Source: Porphyridium purpureum (lineage: Eukaryota). From it: a stretch of DNA of 20,000 nucleotides. Where the stretch lies: the NCBI GenBank assembly GCA_008690995.1, contig VRMN01000003.1, positions 2,289,886-2,309,885 of the forward strand, read 5' to 3'. The position numbers and the translations under genes were made by a program. The notes beneath the pieces are model-generated. The model did not search any database and was not told the origin of the DNA. It saw only the letters and a list, made by a program, of their open reading frames with translations. Shown here piece by piece: positions 1-20,000 of this stretch. Position 1 is the first letter of the stretch. Each line of letters begins with the position of its first letter.

Positions 1-3000
1 GCCGTGACCAACACTTGATCACCAACTTGAAACTCCCGGGCATCCTTGCTTCGATCGAAGAACTTCTGCATTCTCCCCTGGGCTTCGATCAAATTGTCGC
101 GGACTTCTTCATGGACTTTGCACAGGCGAAACCAGTGCTCCGCCATGTCCTTCGTCTGTCCGTCGCGCGCAGGCCTCCACCCTTCGCTCGGTGGAAACCA
201 AGGATCCCTTCCATATACCACTTTGAACGGCGCGAATCCAGTGGCACTGCTTGGTGCAGAGTTGTACGCAAACTCGTACAACGGCAAGTCTCGCACCCAG
301 CCACTATTCGTCGCCATCAACTTGAGCATTTCCCGAATCACGCGGTTCACTCGCTCAGTTTGGCCATCTGTCTGCGGGTGGTTGGCGGTAGACATTGCCA
401 ACTTCATGCCCACCCGCTTGCTCAGCTGCTGCCAAAGCGTGGACGTGAACAGCGGATCTCGGTCAGATACAATTGACTTGGGGTATCCGAAACGGCTCAC
501 GACGTGCTTCACGAACAAGTCAGCACAACGCTTTGCTGTCAAGTCCTTGCGCGTCGGGATAAACAGCGCCATCTTCGAATAGCGATCCACCACAGTCATG
601 ATTGCATCACAGCTGCCTTCGCTCCGAGGCAGCTCCGTCACAAAGTCCATCGAGATGTCGACCCAAGGTCCTTCTGGGATCGACAAGGGCTTCAGCTTTC
701 CAAACGACCGATTCTCTGACTTTGTCACTTGGCACGCGTGACAAGTCTTCGCAAAACGGCTCACGTCTCGCTTCATCTTTGGCCAGTAGAAGCGAGTTAT
801 CAAAGATGCATAAGTTGTGTCCGCTCCACGGTGCCCTGCTGTCGAGATATCGTGGTGGAGTTGCATGACACGCTCTCTGAACTTCCTCGGTACGCAAACG
901 CGATTCCTCAAGTACAAGAGCCCAGCTTCCGTTCGAAAACCCTGGTGGGTCGGTAAATCTCCCATCAAAGTACCAAAGTCCGGGTCACTCGAGTACGAAC
1001 CCACGAATGCCTGGAAACCCGCACCAAATTCCTCACACCGAACTTGGTACTCTAGCGCGTGCACCTCTGGCTTCCTCGACAAAGTATCGGCTACCACGTT
1101 CGACTTTCCCTTCACATAGTCGATCGTGATGTCAAACTCGGCTAAAAAGTCCAGCCACCGTGCCTGACGGCCATTCAGCTCCTTCTGCGTCATCAAATGT
1201 TTCAACGCCTCATGATCTGTATGCAGCACAAACTTTGCTCCGTACAGATAAGGTCGAAACTCTCGCAGACAGTGAATGACGGCCATGAGCTCACCTTCAT
1301 AGCTGCTGTACCTGGTCTCTCGGTCCAGCAGCTTCCTCGACGTAAACGCGACCGGTCTGCCTTCCTGTGCCAGCCATCCCCCCACCGCGACTTCAGAGCG
1401 GTCCGTGTACACCTCAAATGGCTTTTCAGGGTCTGGCAAGGCCAACACCGGCGCTTCCGTCAACATCCCGACAATCTTCTTGAAGGCCGACTTGCCTTCA
1501 TCTCCCAGCTCGATCAGCTGCTTCTTCGACTTTGCGTTCTGCAACAGCGAAGTCAGCGGCGCCACGACGGTAGAGTATCCTTTGACAAACCTGCGAAACC
1601 AGTTTGTCATTCCCAAAAAGGATCTCAACTCCGTCACCGTCTTTGGCACTGGCCAATCTCTCAAAGCTTCCACCTTCCGTGGATCCATCTTCACGCAACC
1701 GTTTCCCACAATGTTCCCCAGGTATTCGACTTCAGAGACGAAGAAGCTGCACTTCTTGCGCTTCAACCGATACCCCGCCTTTTGCAAGCGCGACAACACT
1801 TCCTTCAGGACCTCGCCGTGCGACTGCCTATCCTTGGTGAAGACCAAAATATCGTCCAAGTAGACAATGACGGTCTTGTCCAGCAGATCTGCAAACAGCT
1901 CGTTCATGGCCCTCTGAAAAGTTGCCGGCGCGTTGCAAAGACCAAACGGCATCACACGGAACTCGAACTGTCCGTACCTGGTCTGGAACGCGGTCTTCGG
2001 CACGTCCTCTCTCCGAACACGCAATTGGTGGTACCTCGATGCCAAATCCAACTTTGAGAAACAATGAGCTGCGCCCAGTCGATCCAGCAACTCATCCATG
2101 TTTGGCAACGGATACCGGTCCTTCACAGTTGCGTCGTTCAACGCCCGATAATCAACGCACATCCTCATGCTGCCGTCTTTCTTCTTCACGAACAGCACGG
2201 GTGCTCCAAACGGGCTCTGACTCGGCTGGACGAATCCTTTGTCCAGCAAGTCACCCAAAGTCTCTCGGAGGACTTTCAACTCCGCAGGGCTCAGTCGGTA
2301 GACCCTGCCCACTCTCACAGGCTTCTCATCTTTCAGCCTAATCACATGCTCCACTGTTCGGCTCTCAGGCAGCCCTCGCGGCTCCTCAAACAGATTTTCG
2401 CAATCATTGAGCATCTTTCTCACAGAGTCAGCTTCTTTGCGCTCCACTGAACAGGGCTCCTCCCTTCCTTTCAGCACGCCGAGGTAGCACTCTTCTACCT
2501 CCTGACTCTTCAACAGCCGACGGAGCTCTTTCCGTGGCACCAGCATCTGCGTCATGCTCCAGGCCCTCTCCTCTCCGTAGGCCAACATGCCAGACTGCCA
2601 ATCAATCACTGGGTTCTCCCGCTTCAGCCACTCCATGCCCAGAATTGCGTCTTGTCCCGCAATCCGGCAAATGGCAAAGTTAGCGGCCCCCGAGTACCCA
2701 TCACTCAGTTCAAACTTGACATTGGAAACTTCTCCGGCTGTTTCCAATACGGACCCATCCGCTAGGGTCACTCTATCTCTCTTCCACGACGCCTTCTGCT
2801 TCAGGCCGTCGGATTTCTGCACAAAGTCCACGCTCATGAAGTTGTCCGTCGCGCCACTGTCAATCAAAAACGTGGCCTCTCCGTCGGACTTGTGCACTTT
2901 TCCTCGAACTCGAAGAAGCATGGCAGCTCCCATTCCTCCAAGTTCCTTGATCACGGGCTGATTTGCGCTCGAGTTTCGCCCACAAGGCGTCGGACAGCCA

Positions 3001-3119
3001 GACCTTGGCTTACCAAGGCCACCACAGCGGTCTCCATTGCCGCCCCTAGAGGTCTCGTAACGTCTGCGAGCCTCCTTTCCCTCTGACTGTCCGAGGAACC
3101 TCTCTACTCGAGCTCCTCG
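1..3119 (-). CDS. pol: Gypsy Pol polyprotein (aspartic protease, reverse transcriptase, RNase H, integrase), 3'-partial, in the -1 frame relative to gag
   Basis: Translated by hand; absent from the ORF track because it has no stop inside the window. Motifs found: FLIDSGATDNFM (DSG at 2861-2853), VYLDDILVF (YLDD at 1862-1851), RNase H VYTDRS...YEGELMAV...TDHEAL...NVVADTLSR, integrase H-x-GH...CHAC zinc motif, MDFV, IVSDRD, HPQTDGQTERVN, and FQVGDQVLV at the edge. DSG, YLDD, the RNase H Asp and the terminal motif are in the same frame. Confidence 0.95.
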
Positions 3120-3910
3120 TTTTTTGACTCCAGCGAGTCTCCCTCCAGCTGCTGGATAGTCTTCCTTGCCTCGGGACACTTCCTCGCGATGTGTCCCGGC
3201 CTTCCACAATTCCAGCATTTGAGCTCGGTACGAACACGCCTCTGACCCTGCACATGTCCCAGCTCCATCGGGACAGGTCCTTCCTGCGCTGCACGACCGA
3301 AAAATGGCGTCCTCACACTTGAATCACGCACGCCGCGGGTCGCATGAATGGCGTCGTCCACGACCACCGCCACCTGCGCAGCCTCCGCGAACGTACTCAC
3401 TCCTCGCTTGTACACTTCCAAGCGGACCTCGGGCTTCAGACCCCTCACAAAGCGGTCCATCATTTCTGCGTCCGACAAGTCCGGAATCACAAGTGCCGCG
3501 TCCTGAAAAGCCGCCACATACGCATGGGCCGGGCCTTTCTGCGAAAGACGCGTCAACTTGTCCCTTGCACGCCTGATCGAATCCTGCGGCGTGAACCGAG
3601 CACTCACGAGGGCAGCAAAATCATTCCACGTCGTGGGGATCTCCTGCGGGTAGCGCTCGCAATTCAGAACCCACCAATGAAGCGCCTCTCCCTCGAAATA
3701 GTCAGAAGCCAGGTCTACTGCACGCCTCTCCGCAAGCAGACGTTTCTCCAAATCGTCCGGGTGGATGCTCTCCAACAGCCGGCCCAAGATCTTCTTTCTC
3801 GCCTGGAACAACCACGTCTTCACAACCAGAAGGTCACGCTTCCCGTCGAACCTCATCAGACGGGCCTCCTTCGGGCCACGTGGTCCCAGCGTCTCCGAAT
3901 CAATCTCCAT
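3104..3910 (-). CDS. gag: Gypsy Gag (retrotransposon gag domain plus CCHC zinc knuckle), 268 aa
   Basis: ORF track. Contains GEALHWW...TWNDFAALVSARF...LSQKG...YVAAF...FVRGLKPEVR, a PVPMELG motif and the CWNCGRPGHIARKC knuckle. Confidence 0.95.
   Translation of the reverse strand: MEIDSETLGPRGPKEARLMRFDGKRDLLVVKTWLFQARKKILGRLLESIHPDDLEKRLLAERRAVDLASDYFEGEALHWWVLNCERYPQEIPTTWNDFAALVSARFTPQDSIRRARDKLTRLSQKGPAHAYVAAFQDAALVIPDLSDAEMMDRFVRGLKPEVRLEVYKRGVSTFAEAAQVAVVVDDAIHATRGVRDSSVRTPFFGRAAQEGPVPMELGHVQGQRRVRTELKCWNCGRPGHIARKCPEARKTIQQLEGDSLESKNEELE
3119..3125 (-). other. -1 ribosomal frameshift slippery heptamer A_AAA_AAC at the gag/pol overlap
   Basis: Minus strand reads TCA AAA AAC GAG in the gag frame, 5 codons before the gag stop. 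A -1 shift gives an open frame leading to the protease DSG motif. Confidence 0.8.
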
Positions 3911-4433
3911 GCTTTCTGGACTAAAGCACGCTCAACGACGACAACGACACAAACAGCAAGCCTCCGATGCTCACTTTCTCCAACAGCTGCGCGCACCACG
4001 AACGGGCTCGGTCGCCCTCACGAACACAAACCGACACACGAAGCTGTCCTCTCACGCACACACACGCACAGCAATCTTCCTCTGTTGCGCTGGATGGGGA
4101 GCGGCCCGGGCCTTTGCACTGGGGCGGGGATTATAGATGCGATCTTGTATGGAGGTGTTCGGCGCCTACCTTCGCAAAGGTGGTCGTGCGACACTAGGAT
4201 GAATCCTAGTGAAGGCTGACCGTTACGGCTCTTGCCTACTAATACGTGCTAAGGCAGAGAGCGAGTCCGCCGTCAAGGCCTAGGCCTATCGTACAGCCAA
4301 GACTGAGACCCGCTTCCACCCGTCGCACCCTCCGGATCGACTTACTCGAACCCCCTTGCCCGCAGACTCTCCCACCCAGGCAACCCCAGAGAAACTCTAA
4401 GAGAACCTTAGAGCAACCCCAGGTAACCAGCGA

Positions 4434-4441
4434 TGATACCA
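4434..4441 (-). other. Primer binding site (TGGTATCA, initiator tRNA-Met type)
   Basis: Minus strand reads ...GGTAACA-TT-TGGTATCATCGC, so TGG starts 2 nt inside the LTR end. Confidence 0.8.
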
Positions 4442-4539
4442 AATGTTACCAATGCTGTGCCTTTTTACTCTGCTTCTTCTTCTTTCCTCTTCTGTCTCCG
4501 AGCAAGACCTGACCGGCTAGTCCGGGCAGGCGCGTCGCC

Positions 4540-4547
4540 TTTTTATA
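4540..4547 (-). promoter_or_regulatory. LTR TATA box (TATAAAAA)
   Basis: Plus-strand tttttata inside the LTR, in the element's sense orientation. Confidence 0.65.
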
Positions 4548-4622
4548 CCCTTACTTCCGCCAGGGACAGCAAGGCGCCACGAGAAATGACAATGCAAATC
4601 ATTGGCATTTCTGCGCACGTCT

Positions 4623-4656
4623 AGAAGTTTCCGGAACCTCTAGAAGCTTCTAGAAA
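4623..4656. promoter_or_regulatory. Two adjacent heat-shock elements (nGAAnnTTCnnGAAn) in LTR U3
   Basis: aGAAgtTTCcgGAAc (4623-4637) and aGAAgcTTCtaGAAa (4642-4656), about 75-110 bp upstream of the TATA box. Confidence 0.7.
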
Positions 4657-6062
4657 CGGTTAAACGGTCTACCGGTTTAACGGCTTACCGGTTTCGGATT
4701 AACCGAACCGTTCTAGGTGACTGGGGTCGAACGGATAACAGTGGGCGAGCAGTGACTTTGCTCGATAACGCACGATCTATTGTGAGCCTGCCGTTTGGGC
4801 ATGTCGCCGAAGGCTTTTTGATCGCCGACGTGTAAATCCACGAGCCAACCTGCACGATCGCCGAGACGCTGCACGTGAGTTGGGAGGTTCCATTCTTTCG
4901 CCAGAAAAAATATTTGGCGAGCTTTGTGTAGCAGGATACGGTCGTATCAGCGCTCGCAGGTTTGCACAAGAGGCCAAGGACGCGATTTCGGTCTTGTCCG
5001 CGTAGTGTGTGAGTCGCACAGGATGTCAGCCCGTTTGATGATGGGCTGCTGCGGCGGGTACGTTTTTTTGATATTGTCGATGCCGTGATCATGAGAGACT
5101 ACTGCAAGGTACGTCATGTGGATGAAGAAGCGAAAGTGCTTTATTCTGCGTTCGGTCGCGATGGCGCGCCCCATGGAAGCGTCACCGTGTGCGACGATGT
5201 CGCGGGAATCGCGGCTTTACTCGGTTCAAACAGGAATATTCGCTTGCGCTTGCTGGCATCCACCGCATGTTAGCAGCGGGTAAGGATGAGAAACAGTGCG
5301 TATCCAAAACAGCTAGGAGAGGTTTGCGATTCATCTTCGCGCGCTAGAGCAATTCGTTGCGTTTGGACGGCGTGCTTGATCGCAGACGCCACGCACTTTG
5401 TCAAGATAGCAAGTATGCAGGTAGCGCACATGAATGGGAATGGGATACACAGCCTGGTTGCATGTGGCGAGGCTACGCCAAGCATGAAGGGGCATGACGC
5501 AAAGGCTGCGTGTGGGTGTAAAGGAATACTGTAATGCTCGCGACCGCGTCGCGTTGAGCTCGCGGGTGCAATCAATCGATTGCGACTTCTGAGGTTCTGC
5601 ATTGGCACCGTTCTCTGGGGCTTGGCCACTTTGGTTAGCATGCCGGTGTGTGACTCACCGCTGAAGTGGGCATGCGCGCGCTTCACGTGTTTTGGGTCAA
5701 TGTGTGCCTGGTAAAAGCTTGACCGTGTCTGCGGAGCCTGAGGGCCTCTCCGCGCGCGACTTGTGGAATGCGTGCTGTAATCCACGCACAGCACTCGAGG
5801 CATGCCCATCTTAAAGGGAGTCACTGCGTCGGGTATTGAAATCAGGCCATTGAGTTATGCTGTGCTCGCTCATTGTGGCGATCGCGCGTCTAAAAGCTGT
5901 ACCGCCATTGTCTCAAAAGGTGCGAAATTGGGGTCCTTGGACGTTAGGTACAGCACCGCGCCGCTGCTTTGTGGCACTTGGCGGCGCACGCCGAAATTTA
6001 GTCCGTCCAAGTACTAAATGGACCCGCTGGCGTGTAGAAGGATCTTTGCCTGCGCAAGTAGC

Positions 6063-6120
6063 GTTACTCTAGGGTTACTCTAGGGTTAGGGTTAAAGGAG
6101 GTTTTGCGGGTTGGGTTAGC
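6063..6120 (+). repeat. Telomere-like repeat tract: (GTTACTCTAGG)2 GTTAGG GTTA followed by degenerate GGGTT variants
   Basis: Read directly; same 11-mer as at 10545 and 18822. Confidence 0.75.
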
Positions 6121-6363
6121 TTACCTCATCTCTAGTACAGTTCACGATCCACACTGTACACTACTGTAGGGTCTTGTGCGGTGCCTTCGAAACGTGTACA
6201 ATACATCGTGACTGATAGTGCTAAGTATATTGTACTCGAACTCCACGCGCGACGACGATCAATAGTTGTGTACGCACGTTTTATACTTATTTTGATACTA
6301 CAGGAACAGCATACGCTCGACGAACCCGAGGGCCGGAGGGTAAGCTTTGCGGAAAGTGTTTGT

Positions 6364-9300
6364 CTAAGCATCATCATCACAACGCGTGCGGGCTTGGGCT
6401 CGTGCCGGAAATGCTCGTAGGACCCTGCGTTGAACGTGTGCGAATTGAAGATTGGCTACATCGACAGCTGCGTTGTATGGTGCGGAATTTGCGCGGGCGG
6501 CGAAGTCTCGAGCCTTCTGAATGAGCAGCCTTGAAAAGTCAGCCCGTGTCGGCTGTCTGTTTGGGTCAAAAGTACGCATCAAATGATTCAGTAGTTCCGT
6601 TTCAAACTGCGACAACACACTTCTTGGATTCTGTCGGCTCATGTCCCAGTTGAGCCAATGCCTGGTTTGTAGAAGAGAATCCAATGGATCCGCCTGTGGA
6701 CCCTGGACTACGATTGGATGATTGACTTGCTGGAATCGCTGCAGGTGGATTTCGATCCTGTTGCATGCCTGAGAATCATACTCTACAGAAGTATGTTTCA
6801 GGTGTAGTAGGGTCGTATGTTTCGTTTTCAAATTGATTGTGTCAGGTATACAAGAAATCAAACATTGCGCGGAGCTTTCGAGGAAGCCTAGGAGTGCCAG
6901 GAAGAACTGCTCGGGGTCTGGAAACTGCGCACGTGAGCGCGCGGCCATATCCTTGAACTTGCAACCCAAGTCGTCACGATCTGCCAACCTTGGGAGGTCG
7001 AACATTTTTGTCGCAATTGGACCCCAAACCCACTCATCCGCATATCCACGTGCATTTCGCTGCTTGGAAAAGATTTTCGTGCTGCAGAACGATCGCGCAG
7101 CGTCGAACTGACTTGGTTTAAGAACGACAAAGATATTATTTTCAAGAGCGAGCGCCCTCCAGCCCTCCTCTGTCATGCGGAAGGTTGCGTCGGTCTCACC
7201 GACAGGAAAAAAGTTAATTGATTGCATGCCGATGAAAAATAGTCTCACGAAGGATTTCCAGAAATCTTCGATAGTGGGCTCTGCCATGCTCAACAACTCA
7301 AGCAAGCTGTGCCTTTCCACTGGGCGTGATGCCTCGTCCGTGAAAGAAATCGAAGGCTTTCCAGCACCTCCAAAGTATGCCTGGGTAACGCGGTGTCCAC
7401 GAACTCTGCTGCTTGCGACCTGTGGAGGCGGCTTGAGGGCTTCTCGCGCATCACCATTTTCATGTCGAAATTGAAGCGTCAGCATGACCAACGCATGGCA
7501 CTCTTGCATTGGCTGAAACAAAACCTTGAGCTCGTGTGGCTCTGCATCATGACCGGAAACTTCCAGCCGGAAATTGACCATTCGCTGCCACACAACTTGC
7601 CCCGCCCATCCGCAGCCAACTGTCGCCTTGAAACCGCATGCGTCATACACAAGCTGCCGGTGCCATGTTTCATCCATGGGGTGGCGACGAAGCAAACCTG
7701 TCTGCAATGAGTACGCAGCGACCATTAGTGCGTGCAAAGGACGTCTTGCCAAGCTTATTTGTTCAAGAAACCTTCCAGTCGCACTGAAGTCACTCATACG
7801 CGCAAGTTGGCGTCCGGCACGTCGACTCAATACGTTGTAACAAGTTGCTGTGATTCTCAGATAGTCATTGAGATCTTGCGTTGAGCAAACGAGGACATAC
7901 CTCAAGCTAAAAAGCTGACTGACCCAAGCTAGCACAATTTGCCACAAGTTGGCTTCGACGCTCTCTCTGCCGTCATCGAAGTCGAAGAAGGTGGTCATGC
8001 GCAGCGGAACATGGCGCTCGCGAAGACTCATTCGAAATTCGCAGCGTACTCCATGGTCTGCGGTATCGGTCTCAGTCTCTGCTGCAATGGACTCTGCCAA
8101 TGCTTTTGTGGCACCATAAAGACTTTCAGCGTGCTCAAAGATGATGGAGCGATGCTTACTGATCCACGCGAGGGGCCTTAAAGCATGAGTATCAGAGCGG
8201 TATCGGCTGGTGTGGTATGCTTGGACGTAGCACGTATTTCGAGGAAAACCTCGACGTATGACACTCTCAGCACCACCTGCCGAAACAGAAGTTAACATAC
8301 TGCATGAGCCTCTATCCATTCGTGCACGGAATCCACTGACCTGTGGGAAATTGGCGAACCAGTCTTGCTGAATTATTCGCGGCGCGTAGCCTTTTGGAGT
8401 ATTTTTGATCCATGTTACTAAAGGGCTTTGCATGATATTGGAACTCCAAAGAACTGTATTTCCGCTTGACCCCGAAGTCCCTGCAGAAGGGATTGCGGTC
8501 ACCGCTAAGTCTACGTACACATGATTGCCCGGCACGGAACCATCGAACCCAACGCACCAACGTGACACAAAGCCTGTTTTCGCGTGGAATTGCACCATCA
8601 ATTGTCGCGTCACTTCCTGAAGGCTGCCGTTTGCAATTTTCTCCTTAAGTTCTACGAAAGTCAATCCCCAGAGCGTTGTGCTAACTAAACCTTTGAAGCC
8701 GATTGAGTCGATCAGAATCTGCCATCGACTCAAAAAATGCTGGTCCAAATAATCCACGACTCGCTGAAGAAAATGTCTTGCCACGTGAGCTCCAATAACA
8801 ATTGACAGAGATATAAATCTTGCACTTTCACCACGGGCTCGCTTTTTCGCGCTCTCGTAATTGGGCGGCATTCTCGCAAAAGTTACTGGATCCTTGACAT
8901 CTCGCACTGCCTCCAAGATAACAGATTCGTATATTAGTTTTCTGACATTCTCATCAGCCTGTGCTCCACGGATTACAATAAAAACGAGCTGCTGCTTATG
9001 GTTAGCCGCCGGCAACTCTCCGAGTTGGACAATCACAGTGTCGTCTCCAAAAGAAGGGAAACTGTCGGAATGGACTCGCAAGTTGTAAGCCTTGGACTCA
9101 ACTGCTCGGAGCCCGTGAAGGATAAGTGTGAATGATTCATCAGGGTGTAAACGGATGCCGCGCGTTACGACAATCAATGAATCGACGTCGAGCGTCATGT
9201 CAAACATCAAACTTTGCTCATTGACATGTTCAAACGGCGCATGGTGTGAAAGCGAACTCATTCCTAACCATAGATGATTGTCAGAAGCCACCCCATTTTC

Positions 9301-9411
9301 CGAGTTATCGCGAAAAGTATCACCTTGGAGCACCCACAGAATCCTCTCGTCATCAGTGACAATGCGTCGCATCCGATTCACCCATTCTCTGAAACTTGGC
9401 AGTTGTGCCAT
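6364..9411 (-). CDS. Large intronless hypothetical protein (~1015 aa from the ATG at 9411; frame open to a GTG at 9627)
   Basis: Uninterrupted 1087-codon ORF with globular-protein-like composition from MAQLPSFREW onward. The first 72 codons lie in repetitive sequence and begin with GTG. No confidently recognised domain. Confidence 0.85.
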   Translation of the reverse strand: MAQLPSFREWVNRMRRIVTDDERILWVLQGDTFRDNSENGVASDNHLWLGMSSLSHHAPFEHVNEQSLMFDMTLDVDSLIVVTRGIRLHPDESFTLILHGLRAVESKAYNLRVHSDSFPSFGDDTVIVQLGELPAANHKQQLVFIVIRGAQADENVRKLIYESVILEAVRDVKDPVTFARMPPNYESAKKRARGESARFISLSIVIGAHVARHFLQRVVDYLDQHFLSRWQILIDSIGFKGLVSTTLWGLTFVELKEKIANGSLQEVTRQLMVQFHAKTGFVSRWCVGFDGSVPGNHVYVDLAVTAIPSAGTSGSSGNTVLWSSNIMQSPLVTWIKNTPKGYAPRIIQQDWFANFPQVSGFRARMDRGSCSMLTSVSAGGAESVIRRGFPRNTCYVQAYHTSRYRSDTHALRPLAWISKHRSIIFEHAESLYGATKALAESIAAETETDTADHGVRCEFRMSLRERHVPLRMTTFFDFDDGRESVEANLWQIVLAWVSQLFSLRYVLVCSTQDLNDYLRITATCYNVLSRRAGRQLARMSDFSATGRFLEQISLARRPLHALMVAAYSLQTGLLRRHPMDETWHRQLVYDACGFKATVGCGWAGQVVWQRMVNFRLEVSGHDAEPHELKVLFQPMQECHALVMLTLQFRHENGDAREALKPPPQVASSRVRGHRVTQAYFGGAGKPSISFTDEASRPVERHSLLELLSMAEPTIEDFWKSFVRLFFIGMQSINFFPVGETDATFRMTEEGWRALALENNIFVVLKPSQFDAARSFCSTKIFSKQRNARGYADEWVWGPIATKMFDLPRLADRDDLGCKFKDMAARSRAQFPDPEQFFLALLGFLESSAQCLISCIPDTINLKTKHTTLLHLKHTSVEYDSQACNRIEIHLQRFQQVNHPIVVQGPQADPLDSLLQTRHWLNWDMSRQNPRSVLSQFETELLNHLMRTFDPNRQPTRADFSRLLIQKARDFAARANSAPYNAAVDVANLQFAHVQRRVLRAFPARAQARTRCDDDA

Positions 9412-9740
9412 ATCTGGTACAGCCGCGCGCGTCGTGAGTTCAGATGGGCCCGACCGCGGCGCAATGGCCGATGCGAGAAACAAAAACGACTCCGCGCAAT
9501 GCCACGAACGACGCGGCGGACGACCCGACCCAACGAACGCAGCGAATAAACACCACTCACGACAAACGACTCCGCACAGCAAAAGCGCCAAACAACGGGA
9601 CGCAATGAACGTGTCGAACGACGGCACCCGCCAAACGACCCCACGTAACGACCTCGACGAACGCCACGAGCCTTCGACGAGGCGAACAGCACCACGCGAT
9701 GAACGCGGCGTACGGCTCTACGCAACGAATGCAGCGAGGT

Positions 9741-9860
9741 CAACGCGACCAAAGCGATGAGACCAACGCGACCACAGCGACCAAAGCGATAAGACCAACG
9801 CGACCAAAGCAATGAGACCTTCGCAGCTTTCGCGGCCTTCGCGAACAACGCGACCAAAGC
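9741..9860. repeat. Degenerate ~9-bp tandem repeat (GACCAA(A/C)GC) upstream of the 1015-aa ORF
   Basis: caacgcgaccaaagcgatgagaccaacgcgaccacagcgaccaaagcgataagaccaacgcgaccaaagc... Confidence 0.75.
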
Positions 9861-9976
9861 CTGTAAATAGACGCACGTCTAAAGTATTAGCCCCAGTCAT
9901 CCACCGCGAAAAAAAAAGAAAGTTTCGATGTGATTACTGACTGGCAAAGGCGACGTAAATCACGACGTGCTTTGGG

Positions 9977-10544
9977 TTATGCAGGTAAAAAAAAGGAGTG
10001 CAAACTGTCTAAGGTCCAAAGTTGCGATTTGTATAGTAAAAGATATCGTTTTAATATAGAAAATATTTTACTATGGATGTCTGTGTCCAAAGTTGACTTT
10101 TCATAGGTAAATGCCAGTGTTTTAGTATGATAAATTGAGCATATAAAACGACCCCAAAATAGTGGTAGCAATGCATTACATGGACATCCCACGTTAGTTG
10201 TGACTAAGCATAGTAAAACAAGCATTTTGCTACCCGAGCATATAAAATTGACATTAAAATGTGATAATATAGACATCACGCTGGACTGAGGACGCAGTGC
10301 TTGTTGAGCGATCGGCGGGTGGTGCGTGAGGCGCGGCGGAGGAGTTGCGCGGGCGGGGCGGAGATGAGGGGCGCTGGCGGGCGCGGGCGGGGAGCGGAGA
10401 GAGGAGGGGCGCCGGCGGGCCGGAGGCGCAGGCGCGCGGGCGCAGTCGTGGGGCGCGTTGAGGCGCGGTTGGAGCGCGGGTCGGCAGGAGAAATGGGATT
10501 GTCTCGGGAAGTAGCGTGGGATCGCGAAGTGCAAAATGGACCTC
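9977..10544 (+). repeat. Dispersed repeat copy A (AT-rich block, GC-rich tail, and first bases ATGGACCTCG of a Sel1-gene paralog)
   Basis: Aligns by eye with 15737-16230 and 16940-17508 (shared gtccaaagttgcgatttgtatagtaaa, aatgcattacat, aagcatagtaaaaca, gctggactgaggac, gggatcgcgaagtgc.aaatggacctcg). Confidence 0.88.
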
Positions 10545-10563
10545 GTTACTCTAGGGTTACTCT
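10545..10563 (+). repeat. Telomere-like tract GTTACTCTAGGGTTACTCT at the 3' end of non-LTR copy 1
   Basis: Read directly; the same junction occurs at 18822-18841. Confidence 0.85.
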
Positions 10564-10623
10564 GAAATCGTTTTACATTATAAATCTAAAGGGCCTAAGC
10601 TCTGTACCTATGTATCAGCAAAG

Positions 10624-13600
10624 TCAGTGCGACTCTGCTTCCGATTCCGAGAGTACCTCGCCTACAAAGAGGCGCCTGCCCGTCTCCAGCCAGTGCTGCG
10701 AGGCAACTGGCAGAGTCGGGCCCGGGTGCCGTAGAAGCACCGCCGCCGCCACCGAGCGGTACACCGCGAGCGACAGCGACCGGTGGAGCGCCGTGCTCGC
10801 CAGCATCTTGCTGACTCCACGGTGCCGCATGTACGCCGCCACCAGAGTCTCCAGAAACGCGGCTCCGCACTGTTCGCGCCGGCCGTACGTGTCCAGAATG
10901 ACCGCCTGGAACGACACGCCAGCAGCGTCGCCGGTGCGCGCAGCAGCCTGGAAGGAGGCCTGCTTGCGACGCGCCGCTGCCGCCAGTGCCGCTCCGTCGG
11001 ACCGCCTGGTGCCGGTGCGGTCGGGCACCACCACCGCCACATCGACCCACGTGCTGTCCACGCGCAGGTCGCCCGGCCGGCGCAAGTCTGCCGCGCGCCG
11101 GGAAGGCGCGCACCGCGCTCCACCGGCAAGCCAGCGCGCGCAAAGGCAACCACGGCGTCGACCACCAGTGCCGTGCCGACCGTACCGCGACGGCCCGGGA
11201 TGGCACTTGAGCGCGTGGTGACCGTGCTGGTCCAGCGCGGCCCCAGACGGCATCCGAGCTGCCCGGAGCGCCGGACACGGACGCCGCGCTGCGTGGCTCA
11301 CAGACAGGCCAGCATGTGCCGCACGGCCGCGCGCCATGCATCTGCGCTCAGCGGCGCGCTTCCGTGCGTGCCGGCCAGCTGCGTGGCAGACGGCATCCCG
11401 AGCCACGCCAGCGCGTGCGGCGAGCTGACGCTGCGACGTCGGTGAAAGTCTGGGTCGGACGGGGCCGGCGCGTGGGACCAATCTGAGCACCATTGTCGAT
11501 AAAAGCGACGGCTCCCACGTGCCTGCGAGTCCAGCAGGGCTTCCACATCTTCGTCTGGCTCCAGGCGCCACTGCGCCACGGCGTGTGCGTCTCCGTCAAA
11601 CCTTCGCCACCACTGCGCGAGCGACGGAGGGTACACGCGTGCGGGCGGGTTGTCCACCACGCGCGCGGCAGCACGACTGCCGGCGGCAAACGCAAACGGC
11701 GCAATGTCTGCCACTGCGGTCAGTCCCAAGCCGCCAAGCGAGCACGGCAGCCGCCACTCGGCCTTGCACGGCTCGCCGACCTCGTGTGCCATCACACCCA
11801 GCGCGCGCGCGACAATGCTGCGCCACGCGCGGTCAAACTCGGCAAAGATGCGAGTCACGACGGGCGGAGGCATGGTGCGCGCCAGGTGCATCAGGCGCTT
11901 TGGCCCGACGCTGCCCCGCAGGAGGTAGAACGCCTCTTCGGGGTGGCTGAGCTTGGCCACCTGCTCCGCCAGCTGGAGCACCTGCGCGCTCGCGTTGGTG
12001 ATCGGCACGAGCGACTCGCCACTGCCGGTAAAGTCGAGCGGCACACCGAGCAGCTGCGCTTGGTCCCACGCCAGACGCGGCAGGTCGGCGAGTCCCGCGG
12101 GCACGACTGCCGTGTGCATTCCGGGAGGCAGTACCAGCTGCGTCTTGGTGCGGTTCACGCACATGCCGTGCACGGCCGCGTCGCTCGAAAAGGCGTCCAG
12201 GAAGCCTTCCAGCTGCGCGAGCGGCCCCACAATGCTGCCGTCGTCCAAGTACCAGAACGACGACAAGCCCGGCGACTCGGTGTCTGCCAGCACCTTGTGC
12301 AGCACCAGCGAGAACAGCAAGGGCCCCAGCGGGTCGCCCTGCTGCACGCCGCACGCGCTGGCCAGCACATGGGCGCCCACTCGCAGCGGAGCCGGATGCG
12401 CGTACGTTGAGCGCACCAGCGGCCACAGCGCGGGGAAACGGCCCTGCACGATGCGCATCAGCGTGGGCCGGTCGACGCAGTTGAACGCGTTCGCAATGTC
12501 GACGAGCAGCACGGCTGTGCCTGGACTCTGCATCGCGGCAGGCGCGTCCCCAGCACCGCGCCTTCGAGCCCGGCCGGGCGTCCCACGCCGTACTGGTCGG
12601 GCCGGAGCGACTCGGCTGCGTCGCTGCCCAGGTGTGCCAGCACCAGCTTGCCCAGCACGCGCCGCAGCAGCTCGCCCACTGCAATCGGTCGGACGCCGCC
12701 GTCCTTCTTCTTGAGCGGGATGAGGCGTGCGTGGCTCCACAGCGCGCCAGCTTGCGGATGCAGACCAACACTGGCGATGCGCTTGAACGCGAGAGCCACG
12801 GCCCCGAGCGCCGTGTCACCCGCCACGGGCGTGCGGATGACCTGCTGCAGCACGCCTATGGACCACCGCGACGGTCCGCACCCGCTGGTGTGCGGAATGG
12901 CCAGAATGGACTTGCGCACCGCCTGCGCGTCCCACGGCACGCGCATGCACTGCAGCTGGTCGATACTGACCGACTCGACTGGTGCGACGAGCGCTGCGTC
13001 GTGGCTGCCGCTGCGAGCCCCTGCCTCTGGATGCAGCTCGCGCAAGCGCGCCAGCACCGAGTCCGTGACGTCGTGCACACCCGCCGACTCGACCAGTCGC
13101 GCCGCGGCGCCAATGTGGTTGGCGCGCACATGCTGCACGATGCGGTGCTCCACGGCCTCTGGTGGTATGGGTCTGAGGTGTTGACCGTCCACCACAGGCA
13201 CCGAGTCGAGCAGTGGCTCGAGCGCATCGGAGCGCCACATCTTGAGCCGCGTCGCCAGGTATCTTGCCCGCGCGCGCGTGCTCTGGCGCTCCATGGGCAG
13301 GCACAGCACCAAAGTCGGAAACACCCACAGCTTTCCGAGCGCGCGGACTTGTGCGGCCTCGGACGCGGCTTCGGCCAGCTCCGTGAGCATGCTGCTGAAC
13401 TCGAGCGCAACGTCCGGCGCAAACTTTGCCGGTACGCGCTTCCACGTGCGCACGCGCAGCCCCAGCACCCAATCTACCGTTTGAAGAATGGTGAGTATGG
13501 GGGCGTCGAGCAGCGGCGACGGCGGATGCGCAGCGGCGTGACGCGCCGTCGACACATGCGTGTCTGCGGCCGTGTCGGAGCCACTGCGAGTGTCGTCGCA

Positions 13601-15171
13601 TGCTCCGCTTTACGCCCGCTCGCTGTTACGGAACTGCACGCGACCGCCGTGCCCTTCAAATCTCGGCACAACGCGCAGGATCCCGGCATCGACTGCGCTG
13701 GTGGCGCACGGACAGCGCAGGCAGCAAGCACATCGCGCCCGCCAGCCCAGCGGCCAGTAACCTCTGAGCGCGTCCGGTGGCACTGCGGCAAGTGTTTCAG
13801 CCGAGTGATTACTGCCCGCCAAGTGCCGCAGCAGCCCAGCTGGCTCGGCCCACGAGGCCTCACAGCCTGCCACGGGGCACGCGTTCCACAGCGCTCGGCA
13901 CGCTGGACACTGGCACGCGTCTTGGGGCTGCACGTCGCGCACCGCCCATCCGCACGCGTTTCGCCTCAAGTGCAGGCTGGACAGAAGCTCGGCACTCGCT
14001 GGCTCCGTCGGATGTGCCGCACGCCAGTGCTTGCCCAGCTGAGCCGCACTCTGGTAGCGTCGCATGCACTCGGCGGCCGGACATGCGTGCGGCGCTTCGA
14101 GCTGCGCCATCCGAGCCACGCTGCGTCGCGAAATGTCAAAGCCCGCCGGACGGAGCATGCGAGCAGAGCTGCGAACAGATGCGCTGTGGCCAAGCACGGC
14201 ATCCCTGACCGCTATGTGTGCGGCAGGCCCCGCACGCTGGCGCGGTCGTCGTGCGGACCGACGTGTGGCGCGACCGTCTGCCGAGTCTGCGACACTGTGC
14301 GGAGATGCCACTGGCGCGTGCGTGGCTGCCAGCACCCTAGAGCTGGAGATGTGCGCATCCACCACCGCACTCTCTCGCGCAGGACCAGCACGCTCACGCA
14401 GTTCCACTGGTCCACCCGGCCGACTTTGTAGCCGGCCTCGCCCAGACGCTCGACGAGCGCGGGGGCGTGCGGGAGCCCATTCCGCGTCGCTTTCCTCACT
14501 TGAGGCTAGAAGACTTGCGCCGCGCGGACCGGGCCCTTCCCACGAGTCAGAAAGTGTCTCACTCATGAGCCCCGAAGGGCGAAGCCGCCGAGGGAGCCGG
14601 AGTCACAGCGTGGACCTCCGGAAGTGCGGGAGCGGCAAACTCTTGGCCGCTGGCACGGCCCACTGCGGAACGGTGGGCGTGGGCCGTCTTGCACTGCATG
14701 CAGCGTGCGCGGTGCTGGTCCCGAGAGTGCGCAGAGCCGCTGAGCGCATGCCATGCTCCACACGGGTCTGCAGCGAGTCCTGCCTCGGCAAGCGCGTCTG
14801 TCGAGACCGCGTGATGCGCCGCCGTGGCACTTGGTTGCGTGGCGCACCATGCTGGCCTCGCGCGCCGCTCGGAACAAGCAGGCCGGAAACGGGCAGCGCA
14901 GCGCCTCGTCCGAGCTTTCGGAACGACTCGAGTCGCCGGCGTCAGAAGTTCCGGCGACCGGTGCATGCTGCACAGCGTCATTCAACAGACAGGCGGCAGT
15001 GCTCAGACCCGCACTGTTCTGCTGCGCGTGCTCAACGCCTCTGTCTACTGCAGACTCTTGCTGCGCTGCTTCCGCCGTCACTCTAGGCACTTCTGCAGCC
15101 GCCCGGGAACGCTTGGGCAAAGTAGCCCGGGACGGAGACACCGTGCGCGATAACGCGGCAGCGGCGGGTCG
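10624..15171 (-). pseudogene. Zinc finger-RT-RLE polyprotein of the CRE-like element, split by several frameshifts
   Basis: Fragments: 14563-15141 (CPFPAC..HATKCH), 13610-14566 (CPAAEC..HWRAAH; CPVAGC..HLAGSNH), 12458-13555 (RT N-terminal part), 11298-~12545 (RT core and thumb), 10624-~11310 (DQHGHHALKC, GRH, RPGD, VDVAV, RRKQ, FQAVILDTYG). The frameshifts may be decay or assembly indels. Confidence 0.85.
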
Positions 15172-15377
15172 CTAGGGTTACAGGCGTTTTTGAGGTACGG
15201 TGGGGCAGATCCTAGGGTAGGGTTTCTCTGCGCATACAGGTACAGCGATTACACTTGATCCAGCAGTACAGTATGTATAGGTTACAGGCGTTTTTGAGGT
15301 AGGGTGGGGCGTAGCGTAGGGTTCCTCACTTCGTGTTGAGGGTGCAGTGAGTACACTGGTCCTAGGGTTACATAGGG
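15172..15377 (+). repeat. Cluster of degenerate telomere-like motifs (CTAGGGTTAC, TAGGGTAGGGTTTCTCT, TAGGGTT) with an internal ~33-bp direct repeat
   Basis: TAGGG(TT) occurs repeatedly; tag(g)gttacaggcgtttttgaggta(c/g)ggtggggc at ~15173 and ~15278. Confidence 0.65.
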
Positions 15378-15409
15378 CGTTTGCACTCGCACTCGCTTGA
15401 AACCTCGTT

Positions 15410-15665
15410 TTATATAGTAAAACGTGGTTGTTTTGATATAAGAAACAGCGAGGTTTTAGTGATTTTTGCATAGTACAATGCCTCTGTTTTAGTAAGAAAA
15501 GTGTGTACTATAAAGGATAATTTATTCGCTATGAGAAACTAAGCATGTAAAAACGACCCAAACATTGCGGTGTAATGCATTGTATTGCCATCCCTAATGG
15601 AGAACGAGGAAGCATATAAAAACGACACTGTTTGGATATCTTACTAGAGCATACGAGAATGCCAT
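15410..15665 (+). repeat. Dispersed repeat copy B (strongly diverged AT-rich block)
   Basis: Collinear motifs tatagtaaaa, tgttttagta, agcat.taaaaacgaccc, gtaatgcatt, catccc, aagcata.aaaac, gagcata. Confidence 0.6.
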
Positions 15666-15736
15666 AGTATTATGATGATGGTGACGGCCAAAGGGACGAG
15701 ATTGACGCAAGGGCGGAGGTGTGTGGGCGATGGTGC

Positions 15737-16230
15737 GTTATACAGGTGGAAAAAAAAGTAGGGCAGATTGTCCAAAGTCCAAAGTTGCGATTTGTATAGT
15801 AAAATGGTATCGTTTTAATATAGAAAAATTTTACTATAGAGGTTCGTGTCCAAAGTTGACTTTTTCATATGTAAATGGCATTGTTTTAGTACGAAAAATT
15901 TAGCATAGAAAGACGACCCCCAAAAATGGGTGGTAATGCATTACATGGGCATCCCGAATTGGCTGTGAATAAGCATAGTAAAACAGTATTAGTTTGCTAT
16001 GGTACCGAGCATGGAAAATTGGCACTGAAATGTCATAAAATGCGCATCAAGCTGGACTGAGGACGAAGTGCCTGTTGCGCGATCAGCGGGTGGTGCGGGC
16101 GGCGGGGTGAGAGACGTGGAGCGCGAACGGTTGGGCGCGGGTTGGCGGGCGCGAACTGAGCGCCAGCGAGCACAGGCGATTCTGGGCGCAGGCGCAGTCG
16201 GGCGGTGGGGCGCAGTGAGGCGTGGGCACG
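15737..16230 (+). repeat. Dispersed repeat copy C
   Basis: Near-collinear with copies A and D. Confidence 0.88.
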
Positions 16231-16760: not shown

Positions 16761-16860
16761 TAGTGGGCACGTGATTTGCAGGGTGGGTACGTGATCCGCA
16801 AGGTGGGGACGCGAGCCGCAAGGTGGGTACGCGAGCCGTAAAGTGGGTACGTGATCCGCA
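16761..16860. repeat. 20-bp minisatellite, 5 units (consensus aggtgggtacgtgatccgca)
   Basis: tagtgggcacgtgatttgca / gggtgggtacgtgatccgca / aggtggggacgcgagccgca / aggtgggtacgcgagccgta / aagtgggtacgtgatccgca; related motifs at ~16590 and ~16697. Confidence 0.85.
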
Positions 16861-16939
16861 CGTTGGGTCGAGTCAATAAGGGTACCATAATAAAATGGTG
16901 TTGATTTACTATAAGTGAGTACAACAACGATACTGTACA

Positions 16940-17508
16940 GTTGCACAGGGGAAAAGAAGAGTAGATTGTCCATAGTCCAACGTTGCGTTCTGCATAGTAC
17001 CACGGTATCGTTTTAATATGAAAATAATTTACCATAGCGGTTCGTGTCCATAGTTGCCTTTTTTATAGGTGAATGGCATTGTTTTAGGCTGAAAGATTTA
17101 GCATAGAAAGACGACCCCCAAAATGGGTGGTAATGCATTACATAGGCATCCCGAATTCGCGGTGAATAAGCATAGTAAAACAGTATCATTTTGATATGAT
17201 ACCCGAGCATAGCAAATTACCATTGAAATGTCATAAAATGCGCATCAAGCTGGACTCAGGACAAAGTGCCTGTTGCGCGATCAGCGGGTGGTGCGGGCGG
17301 CGGGGTGAGAGACGTGGAGCGCGAACGGTTGAGGCCATGAGCGGGCGCGAACTGAGCGCAGGCGAACCATGAGCGCCAGTCGAGGCGCAGGCGCGGAGCG
17401 CAGTCGAGCGGTGGGGCGCGTTGGGGCGCGTTGGGGCGTGGGCCGGCAAGGAGAAATGAGATTGTCTTGGGAAGTAGAGTGGGATCGCGAAGTGCGAAAT
17501 GGACCTCG
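16940..17508 (+). repeat. Dispersed repeat copy D, running into the Sel1-repeat gene start
   Basis: Near-collinear with copies A and C. Confidence 0.88.
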
Positions 17509-18676
17509 CTGCAGCGCAGCAGGGTGAAGGAGAAGCCACTTTCACGGAGCATGCGAGCGGCGAGAAGGAGAAGCAAGATTTGCGGCGTACTGCGCCGCCG
17601 CCGCCGAGCAAGCGTGCCGAAAGGAGGCGCAAAATTCGCCGGACAATGTGCCGCGGAGCATGTGCGGCGCGAGGAGGTGCGAGGTGATGTTGCACAACGC
17701 GATGGCGCAGCCGCCGCCGAGCAAGCGCGCCACAAGGAGGCACGGGATTCGCCGCACAACGGGCCAGTGCTGTGGAGCATGCGCGACGCAATGAGATGCG
17801 AAAAGATGTTGCACGACGCGAGGGTGCAGCCGCCGCCGTGCAAGCGCGCCGCTAGGAAGAGGCGCAAGAGCTTGCCGGATAACGCACCGTTGCCGCGGAG
17901 CACGCGCGCCATGAGCAGGTGCGAGATGTCACACAACGCGCCACTGTAACGGAGCAGGCGCACCGCGAGGAGGCGCGAGATTCGGCCGAACAATGCGACG
18001 GCGCCGCCGCCGCCGAGCAAGCGCACCGCGACGCTGCAGACGGCCAGCAACGTGGTCAGATTGTCGAGGACGACGACGGCCTTGCGGAATCGCTGATGTG
18101 GTTACGAGAGATGGCGCTGTTTGGAGACGCGTACGCGTAGGTCAGGCCGGGCCATGTCTATAGCGAGGGTTGGGGCAGGGTGCGCGAGGACGGTCACGCG
18201 GCGGTCGAGTGGTGGCACAAGGCCGCGGAACAGGGGCTTGCAGTGGCGCAGTTTTACTTGGGCTTTCTTTACAAAGGTGGGGATGGTGATCTGCCAAGAA
18301 CGGAAGCGCAGCGGTCGAGGAGTTCCGCAAAGTCGCGGATCATGGCGATACGCGGGCGCCGTTTCTTTTGAGCTTTTGCTGTGACAGCGGGCGGGGCGGT
18401 GCGCCAGAGGACAAGCGCTCAGCGATCGAGTGGCCACGCAAGGCCGCCGAATATGGAGACGCACTGGCACAGTGCGATTTGGGCGCTTCGTTTTCTAATG
18501 AGTCAGGCAGGCTGTGCGAGGACAAGCTCGCGATGGGTTAGTGGTGGCGCAAGGCCACGGAGTAAGGAACCGCAGGGAAGCAATAAAATTTATGCACTTG
18601 CTACCGTATTGGTTAAGGCAGTGTGCGCAAATCCAGACGCGACAGCTGCGCAAGGGATGAGCGCGGGTGCGCTTGA
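17499..18676 (+). pseudogene. Sel1-like repeat (SLR/TPR) protein pseudogene with N-terminal A/E/Q/R-rich repeats
   Basis: SLMWLREMALFGDAYA*, AVEWWHKAAEQGLAVAQFYLGFLYKGGDG, FRKVADHGDTRAPFLL, AIEWPRKAAEYGDALAQCDLG, WWRKATE*G. Multiple stops and frameshifts. Begins MDLAAAQQGEGE. Confidence 0.85.
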
Positions 18677-18690
18677 GCACACGTGAGAAT

Positions 18691-18757
18691 GAGCATGAGT
18701 GAGCACGAGTGAGCACGAGTGAGCACGAGTGAGCACGAGTGAGCACGAGTGAGCACG
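18691..18757. repeat. 10-bp minisatellite (GAGCACGAGT)n, 5 perfect units plus variants
   Basis: Read directly. Confidence 0.95.
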
Positions 18758-18821: not shown

Positions 18822-20000
18822 GGTTACTCTAGGGTTACTCTGAAATCGTTTTACATTATAAATCTAAAGGGCCTAAGCTCTGTACCTATGTATCAGCAAA
18901 GTCAGTGCGACTCTGCTTCCGATTCCGAGAGTACCTCGCCTACAAAGAGGCGCCTGCCCGTCTCCAGCCAGTGCTGCGAGGCAACTGACAGAGTCGGGCC
19001 CGGGTGCCGTAGAAGCACCGCCGCCGCCACCGAGCGGTATACCGCGAGCGACAGCGACCGGTGGAGCGCCGTGCTTGCCAGCATCTGGCTTACTCCACGG
19101 TGCCGCATGTACGCCGCCACCAGAGTCTCCAGAAACGCGGCTCCACACTGTTCGCGCCGGCCGTACGTGTCCAGAATGACCGCCTGGAACGACACGCCAG
19201 CAGCGTCGCCAGTGCGCGCAGCAGCCTGGAAGGAGGCCTGCTTGCGACGCGCCGCTGCCGCGAGTGCCGCTCCGTCGGACCGCCTGGTGCCGGTGCGGTC
19301 GAGGAACGCCTATACATCGTGCGTGCTGTCCGCGCCAGGTCGCCCGGCCAGCGCAAGTCAGCCACGCCGGGAAGGCCTCATATCCGCGGCAAATACAGCG
19401 GCGCGCTCGAGGCAAACCACGGCGTCGACCACCAGTGCGTGCCGACCGTACCGCGACGGCCGAGATAATAACGCGAGCGCGTGGTGACCGTGCTGGTGTA
19501 CCCAATACCAGACGGCTGTGCCCGATGGCGCGGACACGGACGCCGCGCGCTGCGTGGCTCTGAACGAACCGCTGTCGCTGACCACGCCATGCAGCTGCAC
19601 TCGGCGCCTTCCATTGCGATGCCAGCCAGCTGCGTGGCAGACGGCGCATCTGACACGCCAGCGCGGTGCGGCGAGCCCTGACGCCTTTGCGACGTCGGTG
19701 AGGATCTGGGTCGGACGGGGCCGGCGCGTGGGACCAATCTGAGCACAATTGTCGATAAAAGCGACGGCTCCCACGTGCCTGCGAGTCCAGCAGGGCTTCC
19801 ACATCTTCGTCTGGCTCCAAGCGCCACTGCGCCACGGCGTGTGCGTCTCCGTCAAACGTTCGCCACCACTGCGCGAGCGACGGAGGGTACACGCGTGCGG
19901 GCGGGTTGTCCACCACGCGCGCGGCAGCACGACTGCCGGCGGCAAACGCAAACGGCGCAATGTCTGCCACTGCGGTCAGTCCCAAGCCGCCAAGCGAGCA
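18822..20000 (-). mobile_element. CRE-clade non-LTR retrotransposon, copy 2 (3' end; continues beyond the right edge)
   Basis: GGTTACTCTAGGGTTACTCT followed by sequence nearly identical to 10564 onward (3' UTR, RLE C-terminus, post-RT region). Confidence 0.93.

Follow-up and report, generated by a model that had tools for sequence, protein, structure and literature searches.

A candidate telomere motif and a putative telomere-targeting retrotransposon in the red alga Porphyridium purpureum

We propose that the 11-mer TTACTCTAGGG is a candidate telomere motif of Porphyridium purpureum, and that its copies in the 20,000-nucleotide stretch of DNA analysed here (the window) are most probably relics left at internal positions among arrayed elements that target telomeres. 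We favour the telomere reading because tandem words of the 11-mer are very deep in public DNA runs, because the copies keep to a single strand, because the tracts sit at breaks and at the 3' end of a retrotransposon, and because the whole has the layout of the MoTeR and FoTeR elements. As internal relics, the window tracts may lie far from a chromosome end. What is likely to be new is a candidate telomere motif in a lineage whose telomere question is open, together with a putative telomere-targeting retrotransposon.

Previous work gives this question its weight. A 2020 review described data on red algal telomeres as mostly missing or fragmentary (PMC7046594). BAL31 blots of P. purpureum gave no signal with human-type or Cyanidioschyzon-type probes, TRAP found no telomerase activity in three red algae with primers fitted to other repeats, and TRAP products obtained with a human-type primer were judged false positives (PMC3622300). 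The authors of a genome comparison remarked that a clear subtelomeric region is missing from the P. purpureum genome; they give no telomere count for this species and list telomere repeats for Cyanidiophyceae (PMC9812998). A search for a telomerase RNA in Galdieria ended without a confirmed candidate (PMC8287931), and telomeres are reported for Rhodosorus, the motif not being in the sections of the paper at hand (PMC10250338). Our literature searches (Porphyridium with telomere; the motif in six rotations) returned no report of the 11-mer, which subscription papers, Repbase and picture-only supplements may contain. The motif is likewise absent from the TeloBase paper with one supplement, in the form available, and the TeloBase database itself may still contain it.

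Four places in the window match TTACTCTAGGG exactly: 6064-6074, 6075-6085, 10546-10556 and 18824-18834. All four have their G-run on the + strand, as the original prediction stated, and the count remains four when one mismatch is allowed, against 0.07 expected and with at least four copies in none of 200 shuffles of the window. The copies form short tracts of 1.6-2 units on the + strand, each at a break point: G, two 11-mers, TTAGGG and TT at 6063-6093, starting where the left flank breaks off; G, one 11-mer and TTACTCT at 10545-10563, starting exactly where a repeated module is cut and joined to the 3' end of retrotransposon copy 1; and GG, one 11-mer and TTACTCT at 18822-18841, capping retrotransposon copy 2 at its 3' end. 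The original prediction had placed tandem copies at 6063, 10545 and 18822; two copies do follow one another at the first site, whereas the other two have one 11-mer plus the 7 bases TTACTCT. Its three junctions are all real, with the qualification that the second and third are one and the same end of one retrotransposon family, a capping that it had missed: 10545-11744 and 18823-20000 are 89% identical overall and 96-100% identical in the first 400 bases. Since they belong to the same end of one element, these two sites are not independent and count once as evidence for the motif. The TTAGGG that had been seen mixed with the 11-mer at 6086-6091 is present, and is the sole + strand TTAGGG of the window.

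Partial copies, CTAGGGTTAC, occur at 15172 and 15362, both on the + strand, so that the T...AGGG-type unit has the same polarity in 4/4 full and 2/2 partial copies. The first of them (15172-15181, +) is joined to the truncated 5' end of retrotransposon copy 1 and opens the next block, whose end at 15173-15375 (+) carries many degenerate TAGGG motifs, seven TAGGG in 200 bases. Within it, 15173-15277 is related to 6087-6168, with a local alignment score of 45 against a shuffle mean of 21, a score reached by one of 500 shuffles. Block ends at 6087-6168, 15173-15277 and 15362-15390 begin with a repeat seed that is followed by related sequence, and another member of this group is joined at 6175 and 9612 in run contigs. 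Throughout the window the G strand of each tract is on +, and each element's 3' end faces the tract on its left; neither a long array nor a chromosome end is found within the 20,000 nt. The original prediction placed the chromosome end to the right, and the strand of the tracts and the orientation of the elements are compatible with this. A three-copy pattern of the 11-mer had no match in a collection of bacterial and archaeal genomes, and a two-copy pattern had none in viral contigs and one in metagenome contigs. That single match (contig L001, 2820-2860, about three copies) is a low-complexity stretch in an unrelated contig and was taken as chance.

Several junctions can be compared with an unbroken counterpart. 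The sequence at 10486-10545 matches 17449-17508, and this second copy continues without the repeat, whereas the first stops at 10545, where the repeat starts. At the first tract, a contig of run X4 tracks the flank to 6062 and then passes into other sequence without the repeat, and a 1162-base contig of run X3 likewise departs from the window at 6062. Other X3 contigs depart at 9612 and 10727 and continue in repeat letters, at 10727 in a partial repeat only. In four RNA reads, Gypsy sequence breaks off and is followed by the repeat and the end of the non-LTR element, and in run X1 the junction of the tract at 18822-18841 is seen as a loose end. Among the five broken/unbroken junctions listed, flank and repeat have 0, 1, 2, 2 and 4 in-register bases in common; their sum has P of about 0.001, for a post hoc choice of junctions, and microhomology-mediated joining would look alike. 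Simple insertion with target-site duplication was considered and set aside, because in the window the unbroken continuation of 10545 is confined to 17509, within a second module that has diverged, and the corresponding continuation of 6062 is absent.

Depth was taken from six DNA runs of three studies and from one RNA run, out of 24 listed; the RNA run contributes 82 reads, too few for claims on expression. In five of the six DNA runs, words of 30 bases compatible with a pure tandem array of the 11-mer reach tens to about 1,800 times the depth of the flanks. Where depth was compared along the window, the excess was limited to 6056-6095 in all four runs of the comparison, from three studies. 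In run X4, individual contigs 31-32 bases long align to 6059-6088 with one mismatch and have depths of 9,500 and 9,500, against flanks at 5.3 and 11.9; run X9 has such contigs on the same stretch, also with one mismatch, at 350 and 360, against flanks at 5-12; and run X17, which carries a different organism code, has them at 11,000 and 10,500 while covering no flank. Summed depth in X2 is 466,000-496,000 at the repeat and 500-660 in the flanks, and X3 shows the same repeat-confined spike. X1, which ties for the best match among the listed runs, is the exception, with no spike at the repeat (18.4, against 15-17).

A pure array aligned to the window has exactly one mismatch at 6059-6088 and loses its fit at both edges. 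Judging from this alignment pattern rather than from their letters, we read the 31-32-base contigs as words of the pure array, and an X2 contig that links 6088 back to 6059 via CTC is an exact continuation of such an array. In X17 a mixed word (11-mer, 11-mer, TTAGGG) has a depth of 850-983, about 9% of that of the pure word, and TTAGGG units are therefore a regular component of the arrays; joints in run contigs contain TTAGGG units within arrays, sometimes two in a row. Rough totals come to 800-1,800 units in X4 and 30-70 in X9, about 25-fold apart, on the understanding that depth is not copy number and that the flanks may themselves be multi-copy. Words of 31 bases give abundance only, neither the length of an array nor its position. 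High-copy tandem arrays of the 11-mer are thus present in the genome in five of the six DNA runs, X1 being negative. So far as short contigs tell, the absence of long arrays that would have refuted the original prediction is not borne out, and its proposal that the 11-mer is the telomere repeat of the host, or a variant of it, gains support from the depth of the array words in these runs.

The element that carries the second and third tracts is a non-LTR retrotransposon of the RLE type, with a reverse transcriptase, an endonuclease of the CCHC + RH + PD...D...K form and a poly(A) end. Copy 1 (10557-15171, - strand) encodes a zinc-finger region, reverse transcriptase, and CCHC and restriction-like endonuclease, frameshifted as assembled; copy 2 (18835-20000, -), of the same family, is a 3' part that runs off the window. 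In copy 1, RVT_1 is matched at E=1.1e-11, and tblastn with family proteins covers 15150-10633 in several frames. The reverse transcriptase frame (12740-11301) is 97% identical over half its length to the P. purpureum protein P0009, and the named members of its closest protein cluster are also from P. purpureum, which agrees with this species, or a very close relative, as the host. The best solved-structure matches of a relative, P0010, are R2 proteins (E=3e-7). Endonuclease motifs in the window read H-x3-C-x8-RH and RPGD-x8-D, while the related protein P0123 has C-x10-C-x9-H-x3-C and P0010 has all CCHC/RH/PD...D residues plus the E motif. Self-comparison of the window revealed no terminal direct repeat (LTR) at this element, and in five RNA reads a T run precedes 10557, which corresponds to transcripts polyadenylated immediately behind the complement of TTACTCT. 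We use "CRE-like", after the clade of CRE, SLACS, CZAR, Cnl1, MoTeR and FoTeR, for a resemblance in motifs: the residues are present, but published SLACS/CRE spacings differ from those of the element between the first cysteines (1-3 against 10) and after the PD motif (12-14 against 8) (PMC12857005).

At its other end, the frame of copy 1 closes at the 15171 junction with a stop that is formed by the partial repeat, and the gene model P0123 extends further upstream. Copy 1 is thus likely 5'-truncated at 15171, judging from a gene model that may be wrong. An alternative reading, in which an empty target site of the element itself begins at 15172, has lost weight: P0123 suggests that the element is cut at this point, and the same junction recurs in P0006, which lies on another contig. 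The stretches 10037-10485 and 19240-19690 show many small indels relative to run contigs or to the sister copy, which are probably errors of assembly. Given such nearby indels against run contigs, the frameshifts of copy 1 may be assembly errors. Both window copies have their 3' end joined to a tract. Among the eight left flanks of the family that were listed, four have a full 11-mer or more, three a partial one and one none, and a long array precedes the element in 0/8; with the element oriented in this way, it is past the 5' end that a long array would be expected. Since four of the eight left flanks hold less than one full 11-mer, and none a long array, the element may simply carry short tracts along with it. 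Proteins P0006, P0010, P0011, P0123 and P0131 represent at least three related non-LTR families in this species.

The closest parallels in layout are fungal. MoTeR1 and MoTeR2 of Magnaporthe oryzae are, like the window element, non-LTR elements with a restriction-like endonuclease and a full or partial telomere repeat at the 3' end; they likewise form head-to-tail arrays with short tracts between them, and the 3' end of their internal relics retains a repeat that is partial or better (10.1101/845669). MoTeR copies always have the 5' end distal, and their truncations are healed from a one-base seed; the orientation of the window element relative to the G strand fits such a 5'-distal layout (10.1101/845669). 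The target of MoTeR is TTAGGG, whereas here it is the 11-mer and the blocks between elements are unrelated; the likeness to the fungal element that we draw is one of layout (10.1101/845669). FoTeR of Fusarium oxysporum shares with the window element the domain order (zinc fingers, RT, CCHC, REL), telomere motifs at both junctions and the lack of a clear target-site duplication, but has 3-8 repeats at its 3' end, against 1.6 here, and other motif spacings; its copies are described at chromosome ends only (PMC12857005).

For the repeat itself, the original prediction had pointed to TTTATT(T)AGGG of Galdieria. The comparison stands as far as form goes, both organisms being red algae with a long unit (10-11 bases in Galdieria) that ends in TAGGG (PMC3622300, PMC9812998), and reveals no special link; the two algae belong to different classes, the Galdieria spacer is AT-only whereas that of the 11-mer is TTACTC, and the Galdieria repeat is seen at scaffold ends, whereas the Porphyridium 11-mer is known here from internal tracts and short words. 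Long telomere units have been confirmed experimentally in Allium and Cestrum. In these land plants, a long unit (CTCGGTTATGGG in Allium, TTTTTTAGGG in Cestrum) stands in place of the usual short repeat (cited in PMC10767889).

It is tempting to hypothesize how such an array might arise. Telomerase would seed 11-mer DNA on broken chromosome ends, and a telomerase template spanning TTAGGG-TTACTCTAGGG on the G strand would make the arrays, with early realignment after TTA producing the interspersed TTAGGG units. Under this realignment model the template locus would hold CCCTAGAGTAACCCTA(A), an extra AA being in its favour. The predicted endonuclease of the element would nick the repeat, and the end of the element RNA (the complement of TTACTCT, 7 bases) would pair with the freed G-strand end and prime reverse transcription, so that the element would grow 5' end outward, in the direction of a chromosome tip lying on the right. 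Repeated cycles of breakage, healing and addition, or copying from other ends, would yield a head-to-tail array with short tracts buried inside.

The proposal could be extended to the blocks between the elements. The orphan-ORF block that the first tract opens may represent another type of mobile end block, and it is conceivable, although we think it rather doubtful, that the chromosome ends of the alga consist largely of mobile blocks, comprising at least three retrotransposon families and the orphan-ORF block, joined by 11-mer tracts. Elements as well as telomerase would in that case extend the ends and spread the repeat, in a hybrid or Drosophila-like system, a corollary that we regard with the same scepticism. 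In two gene models, P0123 and P0131, different non-LTR families are fused head to tail, which hints that mixed tandem arrays exist in other places.

Against the telomere reading, the 11-mer might be an internal satellite, for instance centromeric, that is targeted by the retrotransposon while another sequence occupies the chromosome ends. Depth gives abundance and not position, every tract seen in context is internal, and the remark that the P. purpureum genome lacks a clear subtelomeric region, with no telomere count listed for it (PMC9812998), would suit such a satellite. Nonetheless, we consider it unlikely, in view of the T...AGGG form, the restriction to one strand throughout, the admixture of TTAGGG and the in-register joins at breaks, and a satellite would leave addition to broken ends unexplained.

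A different possibility is that the 11-mer is terminal but made or spread by retroelements, through a copied tail or slippage of reverse transcriptase, with telomerase absent or minor. Element copies bear a short tract beside unrelated flanks, the head-to-tail fusions in P0123 and P0131 point the same way, and telomerase activity was not found in three red algae (PMC3622300); the published assays, however, used primers for other repeats (PMC3622300). Moreover, the summed depth in X2 is about 470,000 at the repeat, far above the approximately 26,000 at the element's 3' end, and tracts also occur without this element, at 6063 and at the X3 loose end at 9612. Ends made in this way seem quite improbable to us. 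That TTAGGG is the true telomere and the 11-mer an inner-telomere variant is very hard to credit: TTAGGG units do occur in the arrays, sometimes doubled, and pure TTAGGG arrays are not countable with the sequence used, but BAL31 blots of P. purpureum stayed blank with a human-type probe, the TRAP products were judged to be false positives (PMC3622300), and the depth of the pure 11-mer word is about 11 times that of the mixed one.

If the 11-mer is indeed the telomere repeat, as we favour, this concrete motif can serve as a probe, as a TRAP primer and as a query for the template of a red algal telomerase RNA, and assemblies of P. purpureum become checkable for complete ends. The interspersed TTAGGG suggests a route from the presumed ancestral repeat to the 11-mer. 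A telomere-targeting RLE retrotransposon in a red alga, of which our literature searches found no description, would, if true, extend a strategy described in fungi.

The remaining parts of the window give the tracts their context. From left to right it comprises a Ty3/Gypsy element, unrelated sequence that is cut at 6062, the first tract, the orphan-ORF block ending in a module cut at 10545, the second tract, non-LTR copy 1, the partial repeat, a block with two modules and broken Sel1 repeats, the third tract and non-LTR copy 2. The Ty3/Gypsy LTR retrotransposon (1-4740, -) has gag and pol, the gag domains being recognized by profile and the LTR (about 4444-4740) and primer site (about 4434-4441) read from the sequence. 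RNA reads contain another Gypsy copy, which is interrupted near 2993 and runs on into the repeat and the non-LTR element.

The orphan ORF (6364-9627, -; 1087 codons, no known family) lies in the block opened by the first tract and has the same orientation as the retrotransposon. It has one full-length relative at 41% and four fragments, had no Pfam match and no usable Atlas match, and contains the conserved stretches DVDS, YVQAYH and GVRxEFR. An AT-rich and GC-rich module at 9973-10545, without assigned strand, is repeated at 15734-16222 and 16952-17508 with 75-85% identity, its first copy being the one cut at 10545; a more diverged AT-rich stretch occupies 15400-15700. A broken Sel1-repeat gene is found at 18141-18538 (+; PF08238, E=2.7e-9), and minisatellites occur at 18690-18757 (10-mer, 6.8 copies), 16763-16868 (20-mer, 5.3 copies), 17592-17851 (119-mer, 2.2 copies) and 9741-9810 (32-mer, 2.2 copies).
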